Assembly (NCBI RefSeq): GCF_021028975.2 | Contig: NC_059439.1 | Span: 26,350,001 to 26,414,000, forward strand | DNA: 64,000 nt | Direction: 5' to 3' | Source: Sphaerodactylus townsendi | Taxonomy: Eukaryota | Shown: one piece after another, positions 1 through 49,529 of the stretch | Numbering within the stretch: position 1 is the stretch's first letter | Layout of the letters: each line of letters begins with the position of its first letter | Position numbers and translations under genes: made by a program | Notes under the pieces: generated by a model | The model's input: the letters and a program-made list of their open reading frames with translations, nothing else | Database searches by the model: none | Told to the model about the DNA's origin: nothing

Positions 1-310
1 CTCCGCCTCGGAGACTCCGTAGGGGGGGAGGCCGAAAGGGGGGAGAAGGGCCGCCCCCCGCTCCTCTCTCCCCGGTCGGCTCCGTTCCCACGCACCTTCC
101 AAGCCAAAACCTCCCCCTCGCGCCACCAGCAGCGCGCGGCTCGCCATCTTCGCTCGCCCGGAATCTACGTCACGCCAGGCGCGTGGAGGAACAATAATAT
201 CCGTCGGTTCGCGAGCGAGCGCACCCTCTCCTCTCCCGGCGCTCTAGCCCTCCGTCTCTATGGTCGGGGGAACGATGTCGGTACTTTTCTCCCTCCAGAA
301 AGGGCGTCCT
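1..310 (-). promoter_or_regulatory. CpG-island housekeeping promoter
   Basis: High CpG density; YY1-type CGCCATCTT at 142-150; CRE-like TACGTCA at 166-172. Confidence 0.65.
96..147 (-). CDS. First coding exon (MASRALLVARGGGFGLE+G) of a gene running off the left edge; mitochondrial presequence-like, possibly TUFM
   Basis: ATG in AAGATGGCG context in a CpG island; 52-nt exon ending GAAG|GTGCGT; Arg/Ala/Leu/Gly-rich peptide; TUFM lies near RABEP2 in mammals (identity unproven). Confidence 0.5.
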
Positions 311-410
311 ACCCTACAGGCCTGTTTTGTTAAGAGAAATGTTTACAACTTTACAAATATAGCTTGGAGTGAACGATGTGATCATTGCATAAAGAGACCC
401 ACTATTTACT

Positions 411-4710: not shown

Positions 4711-4972
4711 AATACAGTTCATCAGATAAGCCTTCACAGCTCAAGTGGCAGAGTGGGGAATCAAACCCGGTTTTCCAGATTAGAGTGCACCTGCTCTTAA
4801 CCACTACGCCACGCTGGCTCAATATGATGTATACAGAAACACTTAAAAACACTGTCAAGAGGAAAAAAGAGAAAGTACATATCCCTTTCCTGAATGGTTC
4901 TGTTCTTTTTTCCCTCCAAGCTCCAATAGCCCAATCAGCAGGGATTTCCAAAAGAACGCTCAGCCCCCTTAC

Positions 4973-5043
4973 CTGTCTCTCACTCCCCTCTTCCTGACCT
5001 TGCTGCAGTCTTTCCAGTTCGCTCTGAATGCTGTTAAAAGAGG
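4973..5043 (-). CDS. RABEP2: RABEP2 exon 10 (ASFNSIQSELERLQQGQEEGSERQ)
   Basis: AG/GT sites, phase 1 to 0; resembles RABEP2 ASLCSLRTEMERVQQEQ. Confidence 0.85.
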
Positions 5044-5775
5044 CTGGGGATTGGGAGGGAGAAGAGAAGAGAAAGTCAAGCCCCTTCGGGCAGCATTGCA
5101 CACACCCAACTCTTCACGGACATGCAGGCACTTCCATCATATAAAACCAAACCAAAATCCTACCTTGCAAGAGTTCTTCCAGCCAGAAGTAGGGCAGGAA
5201 GGAGAAAAAAGAAAGGCAGTCAGTCACTTGCATCGCAGTGAAAAAGATATCTGACATTGCACCATCAAACCAAGATTGCTGGATTTTTTTAGTCCCAGCA
5301 CTTTCTGATTCCAGGAGCCTGTTCCTTTCCCAATAGCTCAGGGTCCCCAACCTTTCTCATTCTGCAGGCACCCTTTGAATTCCAACACAGGCTGGTGGGC
5401 TCACCCCAAAAATGGCTGCCAAAGGAGGGACAGCAAACCATAAAATGTCGTGAAGTTTTGCCCAATAAAAATATAACGACTGCGTTTTCCCGGCTATGTG
5501 GCCACGGTCTGGTGGTTTCAGCTCCTGACGTTTTGCCTGCATCTTTGGCTGGCACCGTCAGAGGCATGTCACAGTAAGATGCATTTCGTTCCGTGGCTCG
5601 TAGAATCATAGAGTTGGAAGAGTCCAGAAGGCCCATCAAGTCCAACCCCCTGCCATGCAGGAACACACAATCAAAGCAGTGTGGGGTGATTGTGTGGTGG
5701 GGTATATGCTTTGTTTACTTCACAGGTGGGGGTGGTGAGGTGTTTTTGCATGTGTCCAGGTTGCATTTGAACCAG

Positions 5776-6075
5776 GAGCAGCAGTGGCCTAGTGGCTAAG
5801 AGCAGTGGCTACGAGCAGGTGCACTCTGATCTGGAGGAACCGGGTTTGATTCCCCGCTCTGCCGCTTGAGATGTGGAGGCTTATCTGGGGAATTCAGATT
5901 AGCCTGTACACTCCCACACACGCCAGCTGGGTGACCTTGGGCTAGTCACAGCTTTTCGGAGCTCTCTCAGCCCCACCTACCTCACAGGGTGTTTGTTGTG
6001 GGGGGGAAGGGCAAGGAGATTGTAAGCCCCTTTGAGTCTCCTACAGGAGAGAAAGGGGGGATATAAATCCAAACT
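5776..6075 (+). mobile_element. Squam3/MIR-like SINE
   Basis: Full-length copy with A/B boxes. Confidence 0.85.
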
Positions 6076-6570
6076 AAAAAAACCCCCTCTGAAGTCACCA
6101 GTTATAGATGCGGGCAAAAAGGTTAGGATCAGAAACCACCAGACCACGGCCACACAGCAGGGAAAAACCACAACAGCCAGTTGATTTCAGACATGAAAGC
6201 CTTCAACAATACATCGAATAACAGCTCTGCAATGTTTTAGGCAGAAGATCTGCTTAACATTATGCCTTTCAAAATGAACAGAAAAAATATTTCCTTGCAT
6301 ACTCGCAGCCACCCTCGCATAGTCAATCAAATCTCCAGCGGCCAATCAGAAGCCCTGCTGAGCAAAAGCCCCACTTGGCTCCACCCACTTTCTTAAGACA
6401 CTTGTTGAGCACCTGGAAAGATGGAAAGTACCATTGTGCTTACGGCTGTCACACTGCTGGGCACTCTGAAAGGTGGAGGAGCTCATGGGTGCTACATTGG
6501 GAATCCCCTGCTCTAGTTGGACTGCCAAGCTTTACCACCATTGCTCTCTCTGAGCCTCGTTCCCGCCTAC

Positions 6571-6748
6571 CTCGTTCTTCTCGCTCTCCGTCCAGCTTCC
6601 CTTGCAGTTCAGACCGGGCGGCCATCTCTTGGTCTAGCCTCTCGCGCAGGGACACAATCTCTATCCGCAGACGCTCGGCCTGGTGCTCTGAACTGCGAAG
6701 CTGCGATTCGACTTCCAGTTTTTGCTGGCTCACCATGCTCTGCAGGTC
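6571..6748 (-). CDS. RABEP2: RABEP2 exon 9 (DLQSMV...EHQAERLRIEIVSLRERL...EREER)
   Basis: Rabaptin motif AERLRIEIVxLRE; AG/GT, phase 0 to 1; an alternative in-frame acceptor lies 33 nt upstream. Confidence 0.92.
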
Positions 6749-6819
6749 CTGGCCAAGGGAGACGACAGCCCCGTCCATCACCTGAGGATTCACAGCCCTC
6801 CCATGCTGATACCCCATAG

Positions 6820-7422
6820 CAGTGATGGCGAACCTATGGCACGGGTGCCAGAGGTGGCACTCGGAGCCCTCTCTGTGGGCACGCACACACAGAGTTCGTC
6901 ATGTGCAGGGGTAGGGAACCTGCGGCTCTCCAGATGTTCAGGAACTACAATTCCCATCAGCCTCTGTCAGCATGGCCAATTGGCCCATTGCTGGGCGAGA
7001 AACTGATAGGTGGATTCCTGGAAGAAACACTGGTCTGTCATGAGGCAGAAAATCACCCCCCACACACACACATCTAGGCTGGCCTTGGCCACTGAGCACG
7101 ACGTGTGAAAACCACGGTGAGTAGGGAGGACTCGGCTGGCAGGCCTGGTGCCTGTGCTCTGGGTGGCTGCTGCCTGGCGGGCGCGCAGAGGAGGCAGAGA
7201 TGCTAGAGAGGCACAGAGCAGTGTGCACGGGACTTGCTGGAGGCTAGAGCAGGCTGGCCTTTGCTCGAGCAGGTGGGGCAGAGGAAGAGGGAGCCAACCA
7301 GTTTTTTTCTAAACTAAAACCTCAGTATTCAGCTTTAATTGCCGTGTTGGCACTTTGCAATAAATAAGTGGGGTTTGGGTTGCAGTTTGGGCACTCGGTC
7401 TCGAAAAGGTTCCCCATCACTG
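6820..7422. mobile_element. Non-autonomous hAT (Charlie-like) element
   Basis: TIRs CAGTGATGGCGAACC; TSD CCCCATAG; relatives at 42182-42591 and 50459-50957. Confidence 0.85.
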
Positions 7423-7468
7423 CCCCATAGCTTCACTATGACACAAGCAGAGGACTGGTCAGCATTAC

Positions 7469-7600
7469 CTGGATGGGGGGCGGCAAGCGCTGCATCCTGC
7501 CAGCGGCATCTTGGGAAGAGGCTCTGCGCAACGCCTCGTTTTCACTGTTGAGGAGCTGCACTTCATAGCTAAGGCGCTTGTGCAATGCAGCCAGGTCAGC
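7469..7600 (-). CDS. RABEP2: RABEP2 exon 8 (ADLAALHKRLSYEVQLLNSENEALR...)
   Basis: Resembles AELVTTHKCLHHEVKRLNEENQGLR; AG/GT, 132 nt. Confidence 0.9.
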
Positions 7601-8352
7601 CTAGGAGGCAAGGGAAGAGGGAGATCAGAAGCACAGGGAACAAACACGACTAAAGCCCAGGAACTAGGCCGAGACAGACTTCTCAGGCCTAGGCGATGGG
7701 TTGGACTCAGTAGAAGGCAACTTCATGTGTTTAATGTGCTGCCCTGGGATGGAAAAGCAGCATGCCTCTGGGCCAGTGCAGAGGGTAAGGGGCTTTGTGC
7801 CCCCACCTAGCACAGCAGCTACAACAGCTTTGCACCCTCGCCTAACAAAGCAGCTACAACAAGGTTCCCCAGGAGGTTGGGGCTGGGGGGAGAGACTGTA
7901 ACACAAACTGGTTCTCTGACAACACTCATCCTCAACCTCTCCTCCCTCCTAAAACCACAGTTCTGGAAGCCCCTCCATTTGCTGCCCAGCCTTTTTCCTC
8001 TCTCTCTTTGAAGAAGAAGAGTTTCGATTTATGTCCCTCCTTTCTCTCCTGTAAGAAGGCTCAAAGGGGCTTACACTCTCCTTTCCCTTCCCCACCCCGG
8101 TGAGGTGGGTGGGGCCGAGAGAGCTCCGAGAAAAATGTGACCAGCTGGAATTGATTTTCATGGCTGGAATCAACTGGTCACCCAGCTGGCGTGCGTTAGA
8201 GTGCACAGGCTAATCTGGTTCCCCAGATAAGCCTCCACAGCTCAAGTGGCTGAGCGGGGAATCAAACCCTGTTCTCCAGATTAGAGTGCGCCTGCTCTTA
8301 ACCACTACGCCACTGCTGCTCCTTCCCAACACTAAACACCAGCCACACTCAC

Positions 8353-8451
8353 CAACTGCTCCTGAGTCTGTCGCTGGCTCTTGCTCATTGTGTTTTGGAG
8401 GCCCCGGAGAATCTCCTCGGAGCTTTTGACCTGACTGAAAAGAACCTGGAC
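8353..8451 (-). CDS. RABEP2: RABEP2 exon 7 (VQVLFSQVKSSEEILRGLQNTMSKSQRQTQEQL)
   Basis: Resembles MQVLLAQVQNSEQLLRTLQ; GTGAGT donor; tandem acceptor could add one Gln. Confidence 0.9.
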
Positions 8452-8550
8452 CTGCTCCAAGAGAGAAACAGCAGTCATGGAGCACAGGGCTGTCAGGAGA
8501 TAGATCCAAGATGGTTTTCAGCTGCCCCCCCAAGTGCCACCAATACAGAC

Positions 8551-8643
8551 CTGCCTGCAATCCTCGCTGCTGCATCTGAGAATCTCCTCCAAGTGGGCCT
8601 TTTCCTGAGATTTCTTCTCCACAGCCTCCCGATGCTGCCGCAC
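8551..8643 (-). CDS. RABEP2: RABEP2 exon 6 (VRQHREAVEKKSQEKAHLEEILRCSSEDCRQ)
   Basis: Resembles LRRSNEDCAKQ; AG/GT, phase 0. Confidence 0.85.
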
Positions 8644-9777
8644 CTGGAGGAAGAGATCGGGCCCGCAACAAGGGGAAGAGAGGATGAAGTTGCACATTTC
8701 CTACAGCCCAGCTTCTTGAGAGGGAGCTTGCCTCCTTCTCGGCACACAGTTCAAACCCCGACACCTCCAGTTAAAAAAGGCTCAAGTAATTATGTGGTGT
8801 GAAAGACCTAAACTTGAGACTCTGGAGGGCCGCTGTCAGTCTGAATAGCATATAGTGATCTTGACGGACCAATGGCCGGATTCAATATGCATCATGTGTT
8901 CCCCTCCCCCCCCTCTCTCACACACACAAATATTAAAGAAGAAGAAGGGTTTGGATTTATATCCTCCCTTTCTCTCCTGTAGGAGACTCAAAGGGGCTTA
9001 CAATCTCCTTGCTCTTCCCCCCATCACAACAAACACCCTGTGTGGTGGGTGGGGCTGAGAGAGCTCTGAAAAGCTGTGACTAGCCCAAGGTCACCCAGCT
9101 GGCGTGTGTGGGAGCATACAGGCTAATCTGAATTCCCCAGATAAGCCTCCACAGCTCAGTTGGCAGAGCAGGGAATCAAACCCAGTTCCTCCAGATGCAC
9201 CTGCACTTAACCACTACGCCACTGCTAAAGGATTAGCAGTTTTGGGAACAGTTGCAAAAACAGAAAGGGTTAGAGCAGGGGTAGGGAACCTGTGGCTCTC
9301 CAGATGTTCAGGAACTACAATTCCCATCAGCCCCTGTCAGCATGGCCAATTGGCCATGCTGGCAGGGGCTGATGGGAATTGTAGTTTCTGAACATCTGGA
9401 GAGCCGCAGGTTCCCTACCCCTGGGTTAGAGAATGCAGCCTATCAGAGCTCATTACCCAATGCAAATAAGGGTCAGGCTGGTGTTGTTTTTACAAGGGAG
9501 AATGAAACAGGAGAAAAAAAAGAAAAGCTATTAGCTAGCCCAGGCAGGTATGTATGTTCCGGGAAGGGGGAGTGCTTTGTGGTCCCCATCCACTAAAAAC
9601 ACAGGAGCATAATAGTACCCCCCTAAACAGAGTTACACCCTCCCAAAACCATTGAACCATTTCCATAGAATCAGAGTTGGAAGAGACCACAAAGGGCCAT
9701 CGTCCAACCCTCTTGCAGTCCACTGGGACTTCTCCTGCTCTCTAGGAGCTCTCAAAGATTATAGCAAGTGGACCAGA

Positions 9778-9917
9778 GGCTCCTTCCGCACATGCGGAAT
9801 AATGCACTTTCAAACTGCTTTCAGTGCTCTTGGAAGCTGTGCGGAATAGCACAATCCACTTGCAAACAGTGGTGAAAGTGGTTTGAAAATGCATTCTTTT
9901 GCGCGTGCGGAAGGGGC
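9778..9917. mobile_element. Palindromic PIF/Harbinger-like MITE
   Basis: TIR GGCCCCTTCCGCACATGCAGAATAATGC; more than 10 copies (e.g. 20383, 24367, 24877, 25957, 27881, 37350, 43701, 52927, 56661). Confidence 0.75.
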
Positions 9918-9997
9918 CAGAGATTACTTCCGCCAGTTCTTTTAATATCCTGGGATGCAGTTCATCAGGCCCTGAAGATTCGAATTCATTTAAAGTA

Positions 9998-10153
9998 NNN
10001 NNNNNNNNNNNNNNNNNNNNNNNNNNNNNNNNNNNNNNNNNNNNNNNNNNNNNNNNNNNNNNNNNNNNNNNNNNNNNNNNNNNNNNNNNNNNNNNNNNNN
10101 NNNNNNNNNNNNNNNNNNNNNNNNNNNNNNNNNNNNNNNNNNNNNNNNNNNNN
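9998..10153. other. Assembly gap
   Basis: Run of N. Confidence 1.
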
Positions 10154-10260
10154 AGCCTCTAATATTTAAAGGCATGCAATGTCTGAAAGGCTTCAAAAGA
10201 GGGCACTTGCCTGCACCCCGAAGCCTAGGCAGCCTTCTAGTCCCCCACACTCTCTTTTAA

Positions 10261-10480
10261 GAACATAAGAACATAAGAACATAAGAACAAGCCAGCTGGA
10301 TCAGACCAGAGTCCATCTAGTCCAGCTCTCTGCTACTCGCAGTGGCCCACCAGGTGCCTTGGGGAGCTCACATGCAGGATGTGAAAGCAATGGCCTTCTG
10401 CGGCTGTTGCTCCCGAGCACCTGGTCTGTTAAGGCATTTGCAATCTCAGATCAAAGAGGATCAAGATTGGTAGCCATAAA
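10261..10480 (-). mobile_element. CR1 LINE 3' end
   Basis: (ACATAAGA)n tail and 3' UTR shared with copies at 15233, 38401, 39866, 44463, 48526. Confidence 0.85.
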
Positions 10481-10514
10481 TAAATTGATAGCCTTTTCCT
10501 GCCCTTTCACACAC

Positions 10515-10829
10515 CTTGTTGTGAAGCTGCTTCCATTCTGAGTCAGGCACAAGCTGGTACCCAGCCGGCGGCAGGTAGATGGTCTCCGGTACCAGGGTAG
10601 CACTAGAGGAGGCAATTGACACCGTCTCAGGGCTGGCAGACCGTCTGCGGAGCATCGGGAGCCCAGGGCTTGGTACCAGCAAGGAAGAAGAGGCAATGGA
10701 GACACTGTCGAGGCCAGAAGCAAATTTTTCAGCCACTCCTCCTTCCTCCGGGGTAACATGGTCATCTCCTAGTCCATCGGGGAGCACTATGTCGACGAGC
10801 AGAGATTCAGATGAGCTGAAGAGGCCGTC
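10515..10829 (-). CDS. RABEP2: RABEP2 exon 5 (...TLVPETIYLPPAGYQLVPDSEWKQLHNK)
   Basis: Resembles TLVPEGIYLPPPGYQLVPDTQWEQL; 315 nt, AG/GT. Confidence 0.95.
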
Positions 10830-11345
10830 CTGGCAGCAAACAAACAATGAATTAATCCGAGACGTTCCCAGAATTTTCAAAAATGCCAAAGCAGCCCAGG
10901 TGGGACGAGCATACAAGTTGTTGGTTGCTGGCAGGAAGTTGCCCCAGCCCTGTCATTTGGGGGCCCAAAAGAGAATCTCCACAATTACACGAATCGGAGA
11001 ACATCTAATTGGCAACACAAAACTGGTTTTGACAAATGACTCATCCAATAGGACTTTAACTGAATAGCATCCATCGGGTGAGACTTATAATTCATTCTGC
11101 CACAATCCTGACACCCGTCAGTCAAGTTTGGTGTCATTTGCTGATCTGTTTACCGAGTTTCTAGCTTAGAGAGAGAGAGAAAAAAGACTCCATCGCGGAG
11201 CAAAGGCACAGCTCGAAATAGCTATTTATTCGGCAATACCCAGTCCCCACAAGAGCTTTCGGCAGAGATCCTCCGCTTTAATAACAAGCTCACCCCACCC
11301 AGCTTTGGCATTTCACATTCACTTTCCATTTCCTCCCCGGCTCAC

Positions 11346-11465
11346 CTGCTCACCCTGCAGCTCCTGAACTAGCCCCTCCGCCCGGGCCAGCTTCCCCTTC
11401 AGTTCGTCAATTTCCTGCTCCATGGGCAGCACAATGGCTCGGAGTCGTTCTGTATCTTCCTGTGC
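11346..11465 (-). CDS. RABEP2: RABEP2 exon 4 (AQEDTERLRAIVLPMEQEIDELKGKLARAEGLVQELQGEQ)
   Basis: Rabaptin motif IVLPMExEI; AG/GT. Confidence 0.95.
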
Positions 11466-11563
11466 CTGCAGGGAGAAAGGAAGCGCGCCAGTCAGGGGCC
11501 CTCCTGAAGGCTCTCTGCCTCCCGGACAGACCCGAAAGAGGTCTTTGGCTCTTCCTCAGTCAC

Positions 11564-11685
11564 CTTTTCCATCTGTTTCTCCAAGGAGTCCAATGGGCTG
11601 CTCCTCGGCAGCAGGCGGCTCCAGACGTTCTCCCGGCTCTCGCGCTCTCGAGCCGAAAGGCGCGCCTCGTAACTAGAGATGGTGT
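11564..11685 (-). CDS. RABEP2: RABEP2 exon 3 (DTISSYEARL...PLDSLEKQMEK)
   Basis: Resembles DSISSYEAQ and PLDSLEKQMEK; phase 1 to 0. Confidence 0.95.
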
Positions 11686-12001
11686 CTGCAAAAACAGAGC
11701 TCTCGCATTGATGTGCGCACAAGGTCAACTCGACTGTGGGGCCCTACCCCGCTCCAGTCCTCGGAGGTGACGCTGGAAAGTTTGAATGGAACCTGCGTTG
11801 AGTAGCATGTTCTGGGGGGAGCCATATCAGAGGAGAGTTTGGCCAGCAAGACCCTTCTGAAGCATCTTCCAGTTGGCCACTTGGAGAAACAGGATGTGGG
11901 ATGAGATGCACTTTTGGTCTACCTAGCAGGGCTCTCCTCCTGCATACAGGTACGCCCAGCCCCATCCCTTGCTCCTCTCTCTGGCCTCCTGAGTCTCTCA
12001 C

Positions 12002-12232
12002 CTTTCAGAATAGCCTGCAGCGAGGCTACCTCTTCTTGGCACTGGCGCCGGACAGCCTCCACGGCCTCATGCTTGGTGCTTTCGCTCACGGCAGCTACAG
12101 CCCGGACGGTTTCTACCTCGGTCAGCGCAGCTGCCAACTGGACCTGAAGGTTTCGGATCGTCTCTTCTGCATCAGGGTCTCTGTGGAGATCGGGGCCAGA
12201 GGCAGCACCCACCTCCTGCACCCGCTGTGGCT
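12002..12232 (-). CDS. RABEP2: RABEP2 exon 2 (...AVSESTKHEAVEAVRRQCQEEVASLQAILK)
   Basis: Closely matches RABEP2 VSESTKAEAVAAVQRQCQEEVASLQAILK; GTGAGA donor. Confidence 0.95.
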
Positions 12233-12459
12233 CTTGGAGCAGGAGGAGATATTAGGGAAGTTATAACTGGGCTGAATCTGAACTCAGGACCTCTAAATCT
12301 CCTCCTCCTCCTCCTCTTCCCTCTCTCCCTCCCCAGACTTTGATCCTATAACTCCTTTGGACCTTTAATTCCATACTGGGGGAAATACCCTAACCCTATC
12401 CGTGACCTCTGACCTCCCCTATTATTTGTGATGTCAAGCCCAGCTCTGCTCTCAAGGGG

Positions 12460-12920
12460 GCCCCAAGGGCGTGGCTTCCCGTCGCCCCGCCCTCTCTGTC
12501 TGCCCACGACGAGCGGGGCGGGGGGGGGGGGTCTCGCGCGTACCTTCCATTCTGCGGAGGCTTCTGCCGCTGCCGCCGCTCCTGGAGTCGGAATCGCCCG
12601 AGCGGAAGCGGAAATAGCCGAATGAACACGAGAACAATCGGCCAGAAAAAAAAAAAAGAGCGGCCGCAGCGTCGGGTGAGGACGGAAATATCCGAGTGGA
12701 GACTCTGGGGCGGCTCTTTCCGAAAGAGGCTACCGGACGTCTCGGGATCTTCCGGACGGTTCCGAAGGTAGCCGAAGTGGAACCGGGCGTAGCGAAGATG
12801 GACGGAGATGGCCCTAGATGGCGCTGCGGGGCGGGGCCAAGGGAGAGGCAATCTGTAGCGGCCGCGCACTCTATCCATGTTCAGAGGCAAGCCCGCAACC
12901 AGAACATTTTCACTTGGGCG
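12460..12920 (-). promoter_or_regulatory. RABEP2 CpG-island promoter
   Basis: CpG-rich; tandem ETS CGGAAGCGGAAA at 12603-12614; GC box; CTCF-like GGCCCTAGATGGCGC near 12810. Confidence 0.75.
12544..12550 (-). CDS. RABEP2: RABEP2 exon 1 coding part (ATG GAA G)
   Basis: AGAATGGAAG|GTACGC in the CpG island; phase 1 fits exon 2. Confidence 0.65.
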
Positions 12921-14613: not shown

Positions 14614-14774
14614 TCAGTGTTCACGCCCACATTTTTTGTTGGCCAGGGTGTCCAGTTTGGCACCGATTCTATCCAGGTCACTCAACACTTGCTCCAGTTT
14701 CCGTAGCACCTGTGGGTCCGGTGCGCAGGTACCAGGTGACTTGGGTGGAATGGGGGGCTGTGGAACCGCTGGGC
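14614..14774 (-). CDS. I-domain gene last exon: Pro-rich linker plus Cys-flanked coiled coil (GPAVPQPPIPPKSPGTCAPDPQVLRKLEQVLSDLDRIGAKLDTLANKKCGREH*)
   Basis: Acceptor TTCTTCTCTGTGCCCTTTCTAG; phase 1 fits the preceding exon; regular 4-3 hydrophobic repeat; polyA signal downstream. Confidence 0.75.
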
Positions 14775-16607: not shown

Positions 16608-17182
16608 CAGGGGTGGGATCCAAACATTTTAGTAACAGGTTCCCTTGGTGGTGGGATTCAAACAGTGGTGTAGCGCCAATGGGGCTGGGCGGAGCACAAG
16701 GGGGGCGTGGCCAGGAATTCCAGGGGCGGGGCATTAATAATTTCTCTGTTACTGTAAAAAACTCTTACTGTAAAAGAAAAGTTCCTAATTTCCAGCTGCT
16801 ATCTTTCTGTCCATAATTTAAACTCATTATAGCAAGTCCTATCGTCTACTGCCAACAGAAACAACTACTTCTCCTCTAATTGACTTTTCAAATACTTAAT
16901 TTTGTTTCTAGAAATCAAAAGAAGGAGACTTTCCTTAAACAAGGGACTTTACCATATTTCCAAAACATGTTTTTAAAACAGCCCAACAGGGAGAATTATC
17001 CCGTTTTCTACCTTCGCTAACCAGCCACATCGGAAACAACAGGACTTTATGATTTTTGGACCTAATGGAATTTCTAACGGAAAAGCAGACCCAATTAGTA
17101 ACCCCCCCCCCCCCTTGGCACACACAAATAATTAGTAACCCCCTCTCGGGAACTAGTGAGAACCTGCTGGATCCCACCTCTG
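16608..17182. mobile_element. Non-autonomous hAT element
   Basis: TIRs; TSD CATACA(A/G)C. Confidence 0.9.
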
Positions 17183-17496
17183 CATACAGCATATAATTAA
17201 TGTATATAATTCACTGCCTCTAGATGTGATGCGTGCCTCATGGATCTCCAAGCAGGGCACCAAATGACCCGCCTCTTTAAGCACAGAAAATCCTATTTTG
17301 CCTGCCACCCCAGGGCTTCTGCTATTGCACCAGGCAGGCATAGATCACAATACTTTGTCAGCTATGGTTGCTGCTGAAAACTTTTGATCTGGGAGGGGGA
17401 AGGGAAATAAATTATACAGTGGCATTTAAAAAGCCACCCGCTTCTAACTTCTAGATATAGAATCTCCCACCGTACCTCTCTCGCCGGTCACTGTAC

Positions 17497-17647
17497 CACG
17501 TCTGGAACAAATTTTCTCTTGCAGTTGGCGAGCGGTGTCCTGGAGGTCTGTGAAGTGACGCGCGTGCAGTATGTGCTGCGTGGCAGGACGGGAGGCCATG
17601 GCGTTGAGCTCCTGTACTGCAGTCGTGCTTATGAAGCCCAGCCCAAC
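17497..17647 (-). CDS. Integrin alphaM/X-type I domain exon D (VGLGFISTTAVQELNAMASRPATQHILHARHFTDLQDTARQLQEKICSRR)
   Basis: Aligns with alphaM VGDAF...QELNTIASKP...QLREKIF; 151 nt, phase 0 to 1. Confidence 0.9.
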
Positions 17648-19021
17648 CTTCCAAAGAGAAACACAATCAATAAGAGGCACCAAACTGTTCCTTAGAGAGC
17701 TACCAGCCTTGGAAGGACTAGCTCAGGGGTAGGGAACCTGCGGCTCTCCAGATGGCCATGCTGACAGAGGCTGATGGGAAGTGTAGTTCCTGAACATCTG
17801 GAGAGCCGCAGGTTCCCTACCCCTGGACTAGCTTAAGGACTAGACTATCTTAGGCTGATTCCGCATGGGCCAAAAACAGCAGTGTGAAAATGGTGTAAAA
17901 GGATTTAAAATGGTGTAAAAGGGTTTATACTGTTTTAACACCATTTTCACATCGCTGTTTTTGGCCCGTGCGGAATCAGCCTTATGCATGCACTACTTAC
18001 CATGCAGCTATTTGCTTTGCAATGTGGTTTCTCGCAGTTTCTTGTTTGCGCTGGGATTCTCCCCGTGAACTGCCCCTAACCAAGCCGAGCCATCATTTTG
18101 CCCCCCGCCCCTCACCCACTTCCATGTTGTTTCCGTGCAACCTCCATTTGGGGAGGTTGCCTGCCGCTTTCCCCCGCTACCGTCTTTGGTCTAGCAGCCT
18201 AGTGTTAGTTTACGAGGGCACGTCAATTTCTTGTCAATTTCACTGGGTCTATCATTCCGAGGATAGACCCTCAGCATGAAAATAAAAAGAAAGAAAGCCC
18301 TTCTAATCCTTCTGAAAGGGTGGCCTGAAAAGAGAGGAAGGAACCTGTGCAGGACCTGCTACTACTGAGCATGCACAGAGAGCAAAGGTACGCCAGCAGT
18401 GGCCTAGGAGGTTAAGAGCTCGTGTATCTAACCTGAAAGAACTGGGTTTGATTCTCCACTCTGCCACCTGAGCTGTGGAGGATTATCTGGGGAATTAGCC
18501 TGTACACTCCCACACACGCCAGCTGGGTGACCTTGGGCTACTCACAGCTTCTCGGAGCTCTCTCAGCCCCACCCACCTCACAGGGTGTTTGTTGTGAGGG
18601 GGGAAGGACAAGGAGATTGTAAGCCCCTTTGAGTCTCCTGCAGGAGAGAAAGGGGGGATATAAATTCAAACTCTTCTTCTTCTTCTTTGCACATGGGCTG
18701 AGATAGGAGAAGGATGGCACAGCTAGATGGTTCAAAGAGAATCCTTCTAGAGCTCTGAGTAGTTGGTCCAGTTTCTTATGGCTGGATCCATCCTGTTGCT
18801 TGCCTTCCATGTGCTGTCCTAGGCTTCCTTGGAACTCTGCCCCCCACCCTGACTCTGATTTTGGTGAGATCATAATTGTTCCTGACAGGTGACAACGTGG
18901 AAAAGCAACCTGATGCATGACTGCTGCTCAATAGATCCCTATTCAATTCATCACTTTTCCGAGACATCTCCATTCTTATGTCTCTGTGGCCCCTTCCGCA
19001 CATGCAGAATAATGCACTTTC

Positions 19022-19455
19022 AATCCCCATATTGCCCCGGTAGGCCCCTCCGCTCCACGGAGGAGGACCTACTCGTGATCCCTGGCCCAAAAATGATCAG
19101 GCTGGCCTTGACGAGAGGCAGGGCCTTTTCAGCCCTGGCCCCTACCTGGTGGAACAGACTCCCTAGGGAGATCAGGGCCCTGCGGGACTTACAGAGTTTC
19201 CGCAGGGCCTGCAAGACGGACCTGTTCCGCCAGGCGTTTGGCCAGCCTGGTTAAAAATATATCTACTGTGTCATCTGGCCACCCATGGGCACAAAAGGGC
19301 GGAGGGGAGTAGCCAGACGCCATCCACATTTTTAAATGGGTTGTGTTTTTAAGTAACTGATATTTAAATTATGTTTTAATGTATGTGTTAACCTTGTTGT
19401 GAACCGCCCTGAGCCCTTAGGGGGAGGGTGGTATATAAAACAAATAAATAAAATA
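19022..19455 (+). mobile_element. L2 LINE 3' fragment nested in a Harbinger-like MITE
   Basis: ORF2 C-terminus RAFSALAPTWWNRLP...FRRACKTDLF; tail GTGAACCGCCCTGAGCC...(AAAT)n. Confidence 0.8.
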
Positions 19456-19756
19456 AATCTACTTTCAATGCACTTTGCAGCTGGATTTTACTGTGCGGAA
19501 TAGCAAGATCCACTTGCAAACCATTGTGAAGGTGGATTGAAAGTGCATTATTCTGCACGTGCGGAAGAGGCCTGAGTGGCGACACCCTGGAGACTCTTCC
19601 CCCCCCCCCCCCGTCTTCATCTCCACGCCAAGAAGTTGGGACCTCAAAGCCGCATATTCTAGACAAAATCTGCCGTCGTCAAATTGCACTCCAAAGATCC
19701 TGCCTTGTGGTGAAAGAAGGGAATTGGATGGGGAAGAAGAGATAGCTGGGCCTCAC

Positions 19757-19910
19757 CCCAACTGCAAAGCGCACGACTCCAGCTCTCTCTGCTGCTTCGA
19801 CAACCTCTGCGTAGTCTAAGGGGTCCCCAGTTTTCAGCCCATCTGTCACTATCACCAGAATCTTGGTGGCTGTGTTGCGGGCGCCTCTGTGAGGAACGAG
19901 CAGATCTCTT
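19757..19910 (-). CDS. I domain exon C (RDLLVPHRGARNTATKILVIVTDGLKTGDPLDYAEVVEAAERAGVVRFAVG)
   Basis: Aligns with alphaM GARKNAFKILVVITDGEKFGDPLGY; MIDAS Asp in TDG; 154 nt, phase 2 to 0. Confidence 0.95.
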
Positions 19911-20137
19911 CTAAACAGGAGAGAAGAGAGGAATACGGTATGAAGAGATCCAGAAACGCCCATTAATGTTACCAACTTTTAAACTGGGAACGGCACCGCC
20001 GGGGGTCCTGAGGCAAAACGTTTCCCCATTGCTGCATCTTTGCAGCAGCCCGTGATGAACTCCTGCCCCACCAGAAGAGGAAGAGGAGCAGGCCACTGTA
20101 CAGGAGGAGAAGGCGAAAACAGAGCAAGGTTACCCAC

Positions 20138-20283
20138 GTGGCATGCCGGATGGCAGACGCTGTGTGTGTGGTGCCTCCCAGCTGTTTAACCTGGCTGAGC
20201 AGGTGATCCGGGTCGGGATTTCTCTGGAAATGCTTGAAGTCAAAATGCTCCTGAAAACGGCTTGAATACTGCAGGAGGGAGAA
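20138..20283 (-). CDS. I domain exon B (FSLLQYSSRFQEHFDFKHFQRNPDPDHLLSQVKQLGGTTHTASAIRHAT)
   Basis: Aligns with alphaM FSLMQYSEEFRIHFTFKEFQNNPNP...THTATGI; MIDAS Thr; 146 nt, phase 0 to 2. Confidence 0.95.
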
Positions 20284-21126
20284 CTGGAGAGGATGGGGAG
20301 AAATTAGCGGGAAGGGAGAGACCTTTAACTGAGTATCTACCTTGCTTGAATCAGCTTGTTGTGTAATCCACCTGAAGTCTCAGGCCCCTTCCGCACCCGC
20401 AAAATAATGCGTTTTCAAACCACTTTCACAACTGTTTGCAAGTGGATTTTGCTATTCCGCCCAGCTTCAGAGAGCACTGAAAGCAGTTTGAAAGTGCATT
20501 ATTCTGCATGTGCGGAATGAGCCTCAGTGGGAAAGGTGGGCTACAAAATAAACCTGGGAAGTTTTTGCAATTTTGAATTGGCTTCCAGCGCACGGCCCTA
20601 CAGTTAAGTTGCCTAGCCATCATTTCCCTTGTGAAGTTCTAAGCCTATACAGTTATAAGGGAACTTGATGAACAACTGAATAGCAGTGTTATTATTCAAG
20701 TTTCCTTTGTTTTCCTTTTTATATTTCTGGTTTCTGTTTTGAATTTTATTGACTCGTTCCTAGTTCTGTTTTTGTTCCTGTGGGGAGGCTTGATCAAAGG
20801 TGCCCCCCCCCCCCCGGTGGATGTAAAATAATAGCTGGGTAGTGTTCTGACATATAATAGCACCCACCTCAAGGCCGTGGAAACCAAACTGGACTGGTCA
20901 CATCTTTTGGAGGGAGGGAATTATGCGAATAAGTTAGCAATGTAAGCTTTCTTCTGTCCAGCAACTAAATATTTTGGGCATACCATAATTTCTTTTTTTA
21001 AAAGACTATTACTAATTTAAACGGCATCACGGTGGCTAATGTTGCACTTTGACCTGAAGTCCAACCTGTTTCAAAACCTTGGCAATAAGTAAGAACCGAG
21101 CACACCTTCTACCCCATTGCTAGTAC

Positions 21127-21254
21127 CTGTGTATTGTTGGGAAAGCTTTTCATGGTGTGTGTAACAAAGTTCTTCAGATGCATGAATTCTGAGGATCGCA
21201 TGCTGCTTGAACCATCGATCACAAAGATGATATCTCGGGCATCATTTGGACACC
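21127..21254 (-). CDS. I domain exon A (CPNDARDIIFVIDGSSSMRSSEFMHLKNFVTHTMKSFPNNTQ)
   Basis: DxSxS MIDAS motif (DGSSS); aligns with alphaM CPQEDSDIAFLIDGSGSI; phase 1 to 0. Confidence 0.95.
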
Positions 21255-22617: not shown

Positions 22618-22695
22618 GTCCTTTCTCCTTGTTTCCTTGTGGGAGTTCTGGCCCAGCTAAAGCATCCGAGAGATCAAAACCATCATCAACAGACT
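22618..22695 (-). CDS. I-domain gene exon 2: acidic CD99-like peptide (ESVDDGFDLSDALAGPELPQGNKEKG)
   Basis: Acceptor TTTCCCCTCTCACAG, donor GTAAGC; symmetric phase 1-1, joins signal exon to I domain in frame. Confidence 0.75.
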
Positions 22696-23667: not shown

Positions 23668-23748
23668 GTCTTGTCCCCTTGTTTCTTTGTGGGAGTTTTG
23701 ACTCAGTTAAAATATCTCTGAGATCAAAATCTGTGAGGTCAAAAAGAC
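23668..23748 (-). pseudogene. Duplicated copy of exon 2 with inactivated donor (pseudo-exon)
   Basis: ESFDLTDFDLRDILTESKLPQRNKGTR; flanks homologous to the 22618-22695 exon; donor GTAAGC changed to TTAGGC. Confidence 0.65.
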
Positions 23749-24599: not shown

Positions 24600-24651
24600 C
24601 TGCTGTCCCAAAGAGAAGGAGGGTGACGATGAAGACTGCAAACGCTCCCAT
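24600..24651 (-). CDS. I-domain gene exon 1: signal peptide (MGAFAVFIVTLLLFGTA)
   Basis: Kozak GCCATGG, hydrophobic core, donor CAG|GTAGGA, phase 1. Confidence 0.8.
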
Positions 24652-30241: not shown

Positions 30242-30504
30242 AATATGCCCTAGGAAGGATGAAATAGTGAAAGCAGTTTTCAGTTCCTTAAGCAAGGGGG
30301 GTGTGGGGGGGGGGGAGAGAAAATTTGCCTGCTTAGGACCTTAGTGGATCCTGCAGAGATCTGGAGACAGGCATTTTTCCAAATACTTCCCCTCCCTCCC
30401 TTAATTCCTTGCCCCTGTCCTTGTCTGACTTGATTGTGGCGTGATTCATACCCCATTGTGGCCAACGCATAATGTGACAAGAGACGCATTTGTGCCCATT
30501 TCAG

Positions 30505-30642
30505 ATATACGTCCGCAGCACTGATTATGACCGCACTATTATGAGCGCTCAGGCGAACCTTATGGGGCTCTATCCAAGTACAGACCCAGAGATCGGCTGG
30601 AAGCCGGTTCCCATCCACACTGTGCCAGTCAAGTACGACAAG
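30505..30642 (+). CDS. ACP4: ACP4-like exon 4 ([19 protein letters not shown]...[11 protein letters not shown])
   Basis: Conserved RSTDxDRT motif. Confidence 0.95.
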
Positions 30643-30739
30643 GTAAATTGTCAACCAGAGTTCTTGGCGGGTAAAGAGGACATTATGCTCTGCTTGTGTT
30701 CTGTTCCACACAATGTTTTGTGCCATATCACACAACTAT

Positions 30740-47509: not shown

Positions 47510-48073
47510 TTAGCAGGCCAGGTCGAAGTCGTCCCTCTCCTGGTTGTAGTCCAGCACGTGCTGGCGGATGCGGGAGGAGTCGGTCCAGGTGATGAAGTCC
47601 TCCATGGCACGGGTGACCAGGAAGGCTGGGTCGGTCACCACCTCGGGCCCCACCCGCACATGCCCCTGTTCCACGAAGGTGACGGCGGCCTTCATGTGCT
47701 GGGCCATGCGGAGCTTGAGGAGCAGCGAGGGCAGGCGGCGGCGGCAGAAGGAGGAGGCTGAGACGCGCTCGCACTGTTCCAGGGAGTGCTTGGAGATCAC
47801 CAGCCCCAGGGCGTAGAGCTTCTCCAAGAGGGCAGTCGTACTGCGTGCCCGGAAGGCCGCCGACTCGGGAGCCTCGCCCAGGTCCCTGATACGGCGGGCC
47901 AGCTCCCGCACGGCCCGGCTCAGCTGGTTGTAGCGCGTGTAGTCTTCCCGGCGCTGCAAGCGATAGCGCCGCAGGATGCGCAGCTCGGCCAAGTTCCCCG
48001 AGGCAGCCTCCCAGTTCACCAGGTCGAGCTTCTTCAGCAGCTTCTGCTCATGGAATTTCAGCTTGCGCACCAT
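47510..48073 (-). CDS. IMP3: U3 snoRNP protein IMP3 (S4 domain), single coding exon, 187 aa
   Basis: [14 protein letters not shown]...SFCRRRLP...[11 protein letters not shown]...DPAFLVTR. Confidence 0.98.
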
Positions 48074-49529
48074 CTTGCCTCAAAGAAAGGGGGTAAGAGG
48101 GGGAGAGCCCCCGAGACCAAAATCGGGAGCCGAAAACTATGACGTGGCAGTCTTCGTCTTGAGGCTAACGCCGGGACATCAAAAAGGCTGGCACTGCCTA
48201 TGAAGAATGAAGCAACTTTAGAGAACAATTAGACATTAATCGGAATCACCCAACTATTCAATCCCTCGGTATTTTTGTAAGCCTCCTGAATGGGTCGGAA
48301 GAGAAAAATGGCCACTTGCTTACCCCCTGAAACTCACAATTAATAGGCCTTTCCTGACACACACACCCCCGCCCCACCAATTTCAGGACAAGCACTTTGA
48401 AATTCCCCACACAAAATTTGATCTTCATTTTAAAACTAATCCACCCCAGTTCTGTATGAAGCCAATGACGCCCGTTAGAATTTCCTCTAAGCACCGAGAC
48501 TTGAATTATAAGGAAAGGGATGCTTAAGAACATAAGAACAAGCCAGCTGGATCAGACCAAAGTCCATCTAGTCCAGCTCTCTGCTCCTCGCAGTGGCCCA
48601 CCAGGTGCCTTTGGGAGCTCACATGTAGGATGTGAACGCAATGGCCTTCTGCGGCTGTTGCTCCCGATCACCTGGTCTGTTAAGGCATTTGCAATCTCAG
48701 ATCAAGGAGGATCAAGACTGGTAGCCACAAATCGACTTCTCCTCCATAAATCTGTCCAAGCCCCTTTTAAAGCTATCCAGGTTAGTGGCCATCACCACCT
48801 CCTGTGGCAGCATATTCCAAACACCAGCCACACGTTGCGTGAAGAAGTGTTTCCTTTTATTAGTCCTAATTCTTCCCCCCAGCATTTTCAATGGATGCCC
48901 CCTGGTTCTAGTATTGTGAGAAAGAGAGAAAAATTTGCTTAATTGAATCAATGTCAATTCCAGTACTGGTAAGGGGAAATGCGGGGAAAGAGGAAGCAGC
49001 CTTCTAAGTTAACACCCCTGACTACAAGATGAACAGAACAGCAGACGGGGGAGGGGGAGAACAGCAGCCTTGTCTCCCCACGAACTGCATCTCAACAGCA
49101 GGGCAAACCACACTGACAGCCAAGTCCCCCACCGCCACTCAACCTCAAAGAATAAGCAGGGATTCCGCTCCTCAGTCCCCCATAATGTCAAAAATATGGG
49201 GGGGGCACAGTCATCGCCACAGCAATCCGAGCCCAGTGCTACCATCATCGGAGGAACCCTGTGGTCACCTGTAAACCGCACCCTCACCTTTGAATGGCAG
49301 TTATCTCTAAACCGGGGTATCCAACTCTGGCTCTCCACGGACTAGGATTCCCACCAGCCCCTGCCCCCTCCAGGCGTGCAAAGCAGGCAGAAACACCAAA
49401 AGGCCCTCCTTCTCATTTCTACACCCACGGTGAGCTTCACCTGTTGGATTTCACAGTGAAATCATATTACAGTTGAAGGATTGTTAAAGGTACCACGCCC
49501 CCCACCCCCGACCCCCGACCCTTCCCGCA

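Follow-up and report, generated by a model that had tools for sequence, protein, structure and literature searches.

The 64,000-nucleotide (nt) stretch of Sphaerodactylus townsendi DNA analysed here (NC_059439.1, positions 26,350,001-26,414,000), referred to below as the window, carries on its minus strand a short gene whose product, P0001, has 296 amino acids (aa) and the database name 'integrin alpha-M-like'; the seven spliced exons of the window match this record letter for letter. We think it probable that P0001 is a propeller-less and anchorless protein with an I domain derived from alphaM/alphaX, in which a Phe-to-Cys change likely closes a VWA disulfide, and that it is likely secreted and predicted to be oligomeric. 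From its N-terminus the protein reads as a signal-like peptide, an acidic exon with the motif FDLSDAL, an alphaM/alphaX-type I domain, a Pro-rich linker and a coiled coil flanked by cysteines. This architecture is conserved, the I domain is of integrin ancestry, and both of its cysteines, Cys45 and Cys233, stand in register with known VWA domains.

A short I-domain gene conserved across squamates

The four I-domain exons (Table 1) join in frame into one VWA domain, which was the only family detected in the Pfam scan of P0001. A previous interpretation, made from the sequence only, described a domain starting with CPNDARD and ending with QLQEKICSRR, and both stretches were found, at 21252-21232 and 17527-17498 (-), respectively; of the limits it gave, 21254 coincides with the acceptor of I-domain exon 1, and 17497 with the proximal donor of I-domain exon 4. 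No FG-GAP (beta-propeller) repeats were detected by Pfam in P0001, P0002 or P0004, and P0001 has no thigh or calf domains, membrane helix or GFFKR motif, with the best hydropathy window of its last 60 residues at 0.18. When five integrin chains were compared with the whole window by tblastn, matches were limited to the four I-domain exons, and none of 150 upstream frames of at least 62 aa (24.9-49.9 kb) showed an integrin family in a Pfam scan. Exon 1 has a Kyte-Doolittle 19-residue mean of 1.88 at residues 2-20, and P0001 is likely secreted.

Short orthologues, mostly of 290-327 aa and with intact frames, occur in geckos, the amphisbaenian Rhineura, skinks, agamids, anoles and Sceloporus (iguanians) and snakes. 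Every named match in a near-length search (E <= 1e-20) was a squamate; the representative search clusters at 50% identity, and the P0017 cluster could conceal a non-squamate orthologue. The gene is a chimera found squamate-wide and conserved from geckos to snakes, and this conservation agrees with the earlier argument for function over decay. Two Logan contigs, 1162 and 1123 nt long, carry whole short reading frames and therefore point to spliced transcripts in other squamates. In four sequencing runs at the window, introns were covered as in DNA, and no splice joints appeared among the rows listed. The isoform model P0308 of Thamnophis sirtalis stops shortly past KIC, without the coiled coil.

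Databases label the family as integrin alpha-M or alpha-X, and records from Anolis carolinensis and Pogona apply the name 'integrin alpha-M' to a protein of 292-296 aa, so that reptile expression studies may confuse the short protein with the CD11b marker. A literature search by phrase, motif and accession numbers, covering sources outside subscription journals and supplements, returned no description of the protein, which reptile proteomics tables could list.

The cysteine pair and the ancestry of the I domain

The sequence-only reading held that a new Cys replaces the Phe of EKIF at the end of the domain. Human alphaM, and alphaX likewise, reads EKIFAIEG at this position, and alignment to solved chains equates Cys233 with alphaM Phe317 and alphaX Phe315, and Cys45 with alphaM Cys128 and alphaX Cys126. 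Conservation had been set beforehand as a test, and a Cys follows KI in 34/34 squamate records that reach the site, out of 35 family records examined (isoforms and near-duplicates included) of which one is a fused model without the exon. Cys45 was present in 31/31 records with a readable stretch, and both cysteines are among the 54 invariant I-domain columns of 16 aligned sequences. Full-length chains were drawn from the gecko genome and the representative search, and Cys233 is absent from those of squamates (0/4), since two gecko paralogues, Varanus and Naja all read KIFAIEG; no such Cys is present either in the six I domains from other full-length sauropsid chains, among them those of tortoise, tuatara, turtle and of two birds. 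A search for longer homologues was crowded by matrilin-2 and gave no integrin among the best 120 of 376 matches. Phe and Cys differ here by one base (TTT versus TGT).

The register of Cys233 is widespread among VWA domains. Using a profile that omitted both Cys columns, 492 of 739 other domains from the representative search were complete enough to score, and 362 of the 492 have a Cys exactly one residue past the Ile232 position. The residue to which this Cys is coupled is another Cys, 5-7 residues before strand 1: both were present in 339 domains, the N-terminal one only in 19, the C-terminal one only in 29 and neither in 105 (odds ratio 65), although the domains are related and the p-values of this co-occurrence are overstated. 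With one domain per protein the counts were 92, 10, 8 and 30, respectively (odds ratio 34.5). Integrin I domains feature prominently in the 19 rows that have the N-terminal Cys only. P0001 has one Cys 5-7 residues ahead of strand 1 and another in the last turn of helix 7. The description of the Cys as new is therefore right relative to integrins, but not in a wider sense, as it is the commonest VWA state and is shared by geckos through snakes. We judge a Cys45-Cys233 disulfide to be very likely.

In a 47-row tree from which both Cys columns were excluded, nine short proteins formed one branch (100/100) within the amniote alphaM/X/D group (98/97); gecko paralogue B entered this tree with one exon boundary three bases off and one stop symbol counted as a gap. 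Forcing the short proteins together with matrilins changed the log-likelihood by -61.9 units and was rejected by the approximately unbiased (AU) test (p-AU 1.2e-7). Identity of the I domain is 45-50% to sauropsid integrins versus about 31% to matrilin. In gecko paralogue A, the three inner and both flanking introns are identical in place and phase to those of the short gene, and the introns of paralogue B also match, save the first donor, which was not found (in the second full-length gene no GT donor was found where the first I-domain exon should end, L012 about 1369). Gecko matrilin VWA domains, in turn, occupy one or two exons. Because both the tree and the introns place the domain inside the integrins and not the matrilins, the Cys233 site was regained, by a single base.

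In alphaX the N-terminal Cys126 is described as disulfide-bonded to the propeller (PMC3840939), and the proposal that the N-terminal Cys was left partnerless is consistent with this. An integrin trimmed in place was not supported by our results, as two full-length alphaM/X-type genes lie 5.4 Mb off on the same contig, exon 2 is CD99-like and the last exon matched no known family or paralogue in the searches described below. The full-length pair, at 31.72-31.80 Mb (L005-L012), is convergent. According to PMC3840939, alphaX Phe315, Ile317 and Glu318 make up the internal ligand of the beta subunit and do not vary among human alpha-I integrins; all three positions are altered in 16/16 aligned short proteins, among which Lys231, Ile232 and Phe218 are invariant.

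Helix 7, predicted oligomerisation and alternative explanations

In the AlphaFold model, helix 7 spans residues 218-234, with Cys233 in its last turn, and residues 1-42 have a predicted local distance difference test (pLDDT) score under 50. The best fold match was alphaM 1MF7, with residues 45..237 placed onto 128..321 (Z 29.9, root-mean-square deviation (rmsd) 1.6, 193 aligned); we take this chain to be an engineered closed-state alphaM mutant with a Cys128-Cys318 bond. Engineered disulfides in alphaM were reportedly described by McCleverty and Liddington in 2003 and by Shimaoka in 2002. Matches to TRAP were Z 21.9 for closed 4F1J versus Z 19.8 for 4HQL. The adhesion site that depends on a metal ion (MIDAS) is intact in S. 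townsendi.

The sequence-only reading expected the bond to fix helix 7 and, with it, the affinity state. As worded, this finds no support in TRAP and MIC2, where, according to PMC7351488, a disulfide links the N-terminal segment with helix 7 at its last turn; crystal structures of these domains nevertheless show the closed as well as the open state, with both segments shifting together. Since Cys45 follows a disordered leader, a similar freedom is likely in P0001, and a closed-biased but switchable domain seems more likely than a rigid lock.

The following sequence of events would account for these observations. The four I-domain exons, as a phase 1-1 module, would have left their integrin context, whereby Cys45 lost its propeller partner and the KIFAIEG relay to the beta subunit lost its purpose. 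Phe317 would then have been free to become Cys by one base, and Glu320 would have been lost. The Cys45-Cys233 bond may cap the bottom of the domain and favour a closed resting position of helix 7, as a stabilising staple rather than a lock, because Cys45 sits on a free linker and both ends could descend together, as in TRAP. Several chains would be held together by the coiled coil, with Cys260 and/or Cys292 forming cross-links, and the bundled low-affinity MIDAS sites could bind clustered CR3/CR4-type ligands by avidity. We infer that the most likely role of such a protein is that of a soluble immune adhesin, opsonin or decoy. A more far-reaching version, which we consider unlikely as a whole, sees P0001 as an exon-shuffled plasma or matrix protein of squamates with three sources (the CD99 family for its front end, a complement receptor for its I domain, and a coiled coil), its ancestral VWA disulfide regained by one point mutation; it would be a soluble multivalent mimic of complement receptors, with helix 7 opening under tension as in TRAP and the acidic FDLSDA peptide acting as a tethered MIDAS plug or a CD99-pathway ligand.

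The prediction that P0001 is oligomeric through its coiled coil comes from the tail. Nine heptad-spaced positions hold large hydrophobic residues in 16/16 sequences, and three copies of the tail reached a self-association score of 0.38 versus 0.02 for the best of three controls, with contact agreement of at least 79% and pLDDT of at least 64. The mark for this complex score was passed by 21/30 solved pairs and 0/23 single chains from microbes, and by 7/16 pairs from animals. For the last exon, we found no Pfam family above the cut-off, no genome paralogue below E 1 and no usable Atlas match. A tail profile run on 56 matrilin ends gave a maximum of 13.9 and a median of 1.4 bits, with controls reaching at most 1.8, and there was no match to the Pfam matrilin coil; the last exon alone may still be of matrilin origin.

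Several observations weigh against the explanation that we favour. The closed-like AlphaFold model is weak evidence on state, as Z scores for closed and open alphaM differ by 1-3 and open 1IDO scored 28.5. The MIDAS varies among the short proteins, with alphaM Thr209 replaced by Ser in 10/16, Asp242 lost in 2/16 and Ser144 replaced by Thr in 1/16. Secretion is predicted from hydropathy, and alphaM/alphaX are the source from which both ligand and immune role are extrapolated. The complex prediction concerns three copies of a 42-residue piece, which is beyond the two-copy calibration, and coiled coils may reach the mark because they resemble solved examples. Finally, propeller-less I-domain proteins of herring-family fishes lack both cysteines in register, so a staple is not needed outside integrins. 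The residues found in place of Asp242 are Lys in Tiliqua and Gly in Crotalus adamanteus (P0014, P0017).

Among the alternatives, a true lock would have the disulfide hold helix 7 closed at permanently low affinity, leaving binding to avidity or, as in VWF A1/A3, to surfaces outside the MIDAS. Cys233 comes right after Ile232, which corresponds to alphaM Ile316; PMC9876370 states that the socket of this Ile keeps alphaM closed and that the state can be set by engineered disulfides. The top match 1MF7 is ordered from Cys128, and the MIDAS losses in 2/16 sequences fit a relaxed use of metal. However, TRAP and MIC2 retain such a bond and yet open by two helical turns (PMC7351488), the alphaX linker past Cys126 is described as flexible (PMC3840939) and nothing folded precedes Cys45 in P0001. 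In addition, DxSxS and Phe218 (alphaM Phe302) are retained in 15-16 of 16 short proteins, and on balance a lock of this kind is improbable. It is considerably harder to believe that Cys45 and Cys233 are not paired with each other but bonded to tail cysteines or to other chains, which would give a disulfide-linked polymer. The number of cysteines, four in most members and five in snakes, would allow it, as would the 20-27 residues of flexible linker between Cys233 and Cys260, but the register is identical to that of the co-varying VWA pair, and in the tail model Cys260 contacts its counterpart in a different chain (expected error 5.9 A). Moreover, Paroedura has no Cys260 and retains cysteines 45, 233 and 292, so Cys260 is no obligate partner of either. 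The extra tail Cys of the snake members lies in a CxxC.

Only a very small chance is left to an ancestral Cys pair, carried by a matrilin that has diverged or by an old VWA lineage with no integrin stage in its past, and for the I domain this is largely refuted. The language model does rank a cluster of a 298-aa matrilin-3 isoform as the nearest one (score 0.95), matrilins have LQKRIC in the same register, and some of their tails score well above the controls, but higher identity to integrins, the tree and AU test, integrin introns and the lack of EGF domains and of a Pfam matrilin coil all stand against it. The nearness to a short matrilin-3 isoform agrees with convergence towards the design of matrilins. 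Least credible of all is a decaying integrin fragment or an artefact of gene models. Two database models, P0018 and P0019, do join the I-domain gene with RABEP2, and several others are N-terminally truncated; the fusions, though, are likely annotation artefacts, since the I-domain gene has its own stop and AATAAA. Intact frames of 290-327 aa throughout squamates, canonical splice sites and contigs of transcript length argue against decay, as does a dead copy of exon 2 that lost its donor and its motif while the live exon kept FDLSDAL.

The short gene is a natural experiment on integrin allostery, in which an alphaM-type I domain has done without a beta subunit throughout the radiation of squamates. 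Its probable native disulfide would fall where protein engineers target affinity and permits a direct test of the N-to-C bond as lock or stabiliser. The gene would also illustrate cleanly how a molecule can revert to an earlier state and converge on the design of matrilins.

Gene features and comparison with known systems

Table 1. Positions of the short I-domain gene's features in the window
Feature	Position	Strand	Remarks
Coding exon 1	24600..24651	-	N-terminal residues 1-17, hydrophobic and likely a signal peptide; donor in phase 1
Decayed exon 2 duplicate in intron 1	23668..23748 (approximate)	-	Acceptor kept, GT donor lost, motif now FDLRDIL
Exon 2	22618..22695	-	78 nt, 26 codons, phase 1-1; acidic, FDLSDAL as in CD99-family exons
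I-domain exon 1	21127..21254	-	Cys45 (codon 21252-21250), MIDAS DxSxS (D57, S59, S61)
I-domain exon 2	20138..20283	-	MIDAS Thr125 (alphaM Thr209)
I-domain exon 3	19757..19910	-	MIDAS Asp158 (alphaM Asp242)
I-domain exon 4	17497..17647	-	Helix 7; proximal donor 17497, distal donor 17476
Cys233 codon TGT	17507..17509	-	TTT (Phe) in both full-length gecko paralogues
Last coding exon	14614..14774	-	Pro-rich linker, Cys260, heptad helix 266-287, Cys292, stop
AATAAA	14452..14457	-	About 157 nt past the stop; likely polyadenylation signal ending the gene before RABEP2

Of the two donors of the fourth I-domain exon, the proximal one is in the integrin register and the distal one is used in the database model, adding seven residues. 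They are in frame and 21 nt apart, and the choice between them varies among other gecko records. The Cys233 codon is upstream of both, so Cys233 is coding with either. One contig of run X1, which may be the source sample, covers 17169-17721 with 0 differing letters and 0 gaps. RABEP2 exons follow directly downstream (window 4967-12709, -), and the upstream neighbour, arranged head to head, is a histidine acid phosphatase exon (window 30478-30738, +; Pfam His_Phos_2, E 5.7e-8). Farther off, an unbroken 189-aa frame at 47513-48079 (-) matches ribosomal protein S4/S9 and is likely an RPS9 retrocopy.

Exon 2 resembles CD99, XG and CD99L2 in having an exact FDLSDAL within a short phase 1-1 exon; the human CD99 N-terminus starts DGGFDLSDALPD, which includes this motif (PMC13604740). 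Across orthologues, the motif columns are 96% identical versus 54% for the entire exon 2 segment, and the decayed copy in intron 1 has a local alignment score of 173 versus at most 72 across 300 random windows. In the gecko, the two CD99-family loci (200 kb; expected 0.0006) hold exact FDLSDAL in four exons of phase 1-1, with 0 copies in 160 kb of control DNA. Two further FDLSDAL exons (L023:4031, L034:5798, -) lie downstream of the CD99-family match on C4 and probably belong to XG. The short gene differs from the CD99 family in its single motif, in having no membrane helix and no Pfam CD99L2 match, and in its position on a different contig from both gecko loci. As the likeness spans seven residues, it may reflect exon shuffling or convergence on a short motif. 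The portions of the CD99 literature that were searched gave no function for FDLSDAL.

By its defining features P0001 is no integrin alpha subunit, no matrilin and no CD99. Other I domains of integrin type occur outside integrins in propeller-less proteins of Sardina and Alosa, known from database models and some of them with hydrophobic N-termini, which differ from P0001 in forming a separate branch, in their tandem domains and in having neither Cys in register; they likely represent an independent escape of the I domain. Some of these sardine and shad records (P0204, P0211, P0213, P0150) are fused to mucin-like or other modules, and they bear names such as 'cartilage matrix protein-like' and 'mucin-like'. 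Plasmodium TRAP and Toxoplasma MIC2 share with P0001 a Cys in the N-segment that faces helix 7 at its last turn, a MIDAS and the absence of a beta subunit (PMC7351488), but their identity to it is 16-19% and their origin unrelated, and they are membrane-anchored, carry TSR domains and are pulled by the cytoskeleton.

The I domain itself is closest to that of integrins alphaM, alphaX and alphaD (CD11b/c/d), with 44-50% identity, the same fold (Z 29-30, rmsd about 1.6), the MIDAS, Ile316 and the introns in common, but P0001 lacks the propeller, thigh, calf, membrane helix and GFFKR of these chains, ends in a coiled-coil tail, and reads KIC(S/A)xx(G) where the integrins have the KIFAIEG relay motif. 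With matrilins, which end in LQKRIC, it shares the Cys pair in the same register and the order of a VWA domain followed by a helix, in P0001 predicted to oligomerise, with a nearby Cys; it departs from them in the integrin descent of its VWA domain, spread over four exons rather than one or two, in lacking EGF domains and in its one-exon coil without a Pfam matrilin match. In its predicted working, P0001 most resembles a carrier that has the shape of a matrilin and bears a domain of CR3/CR4 type.

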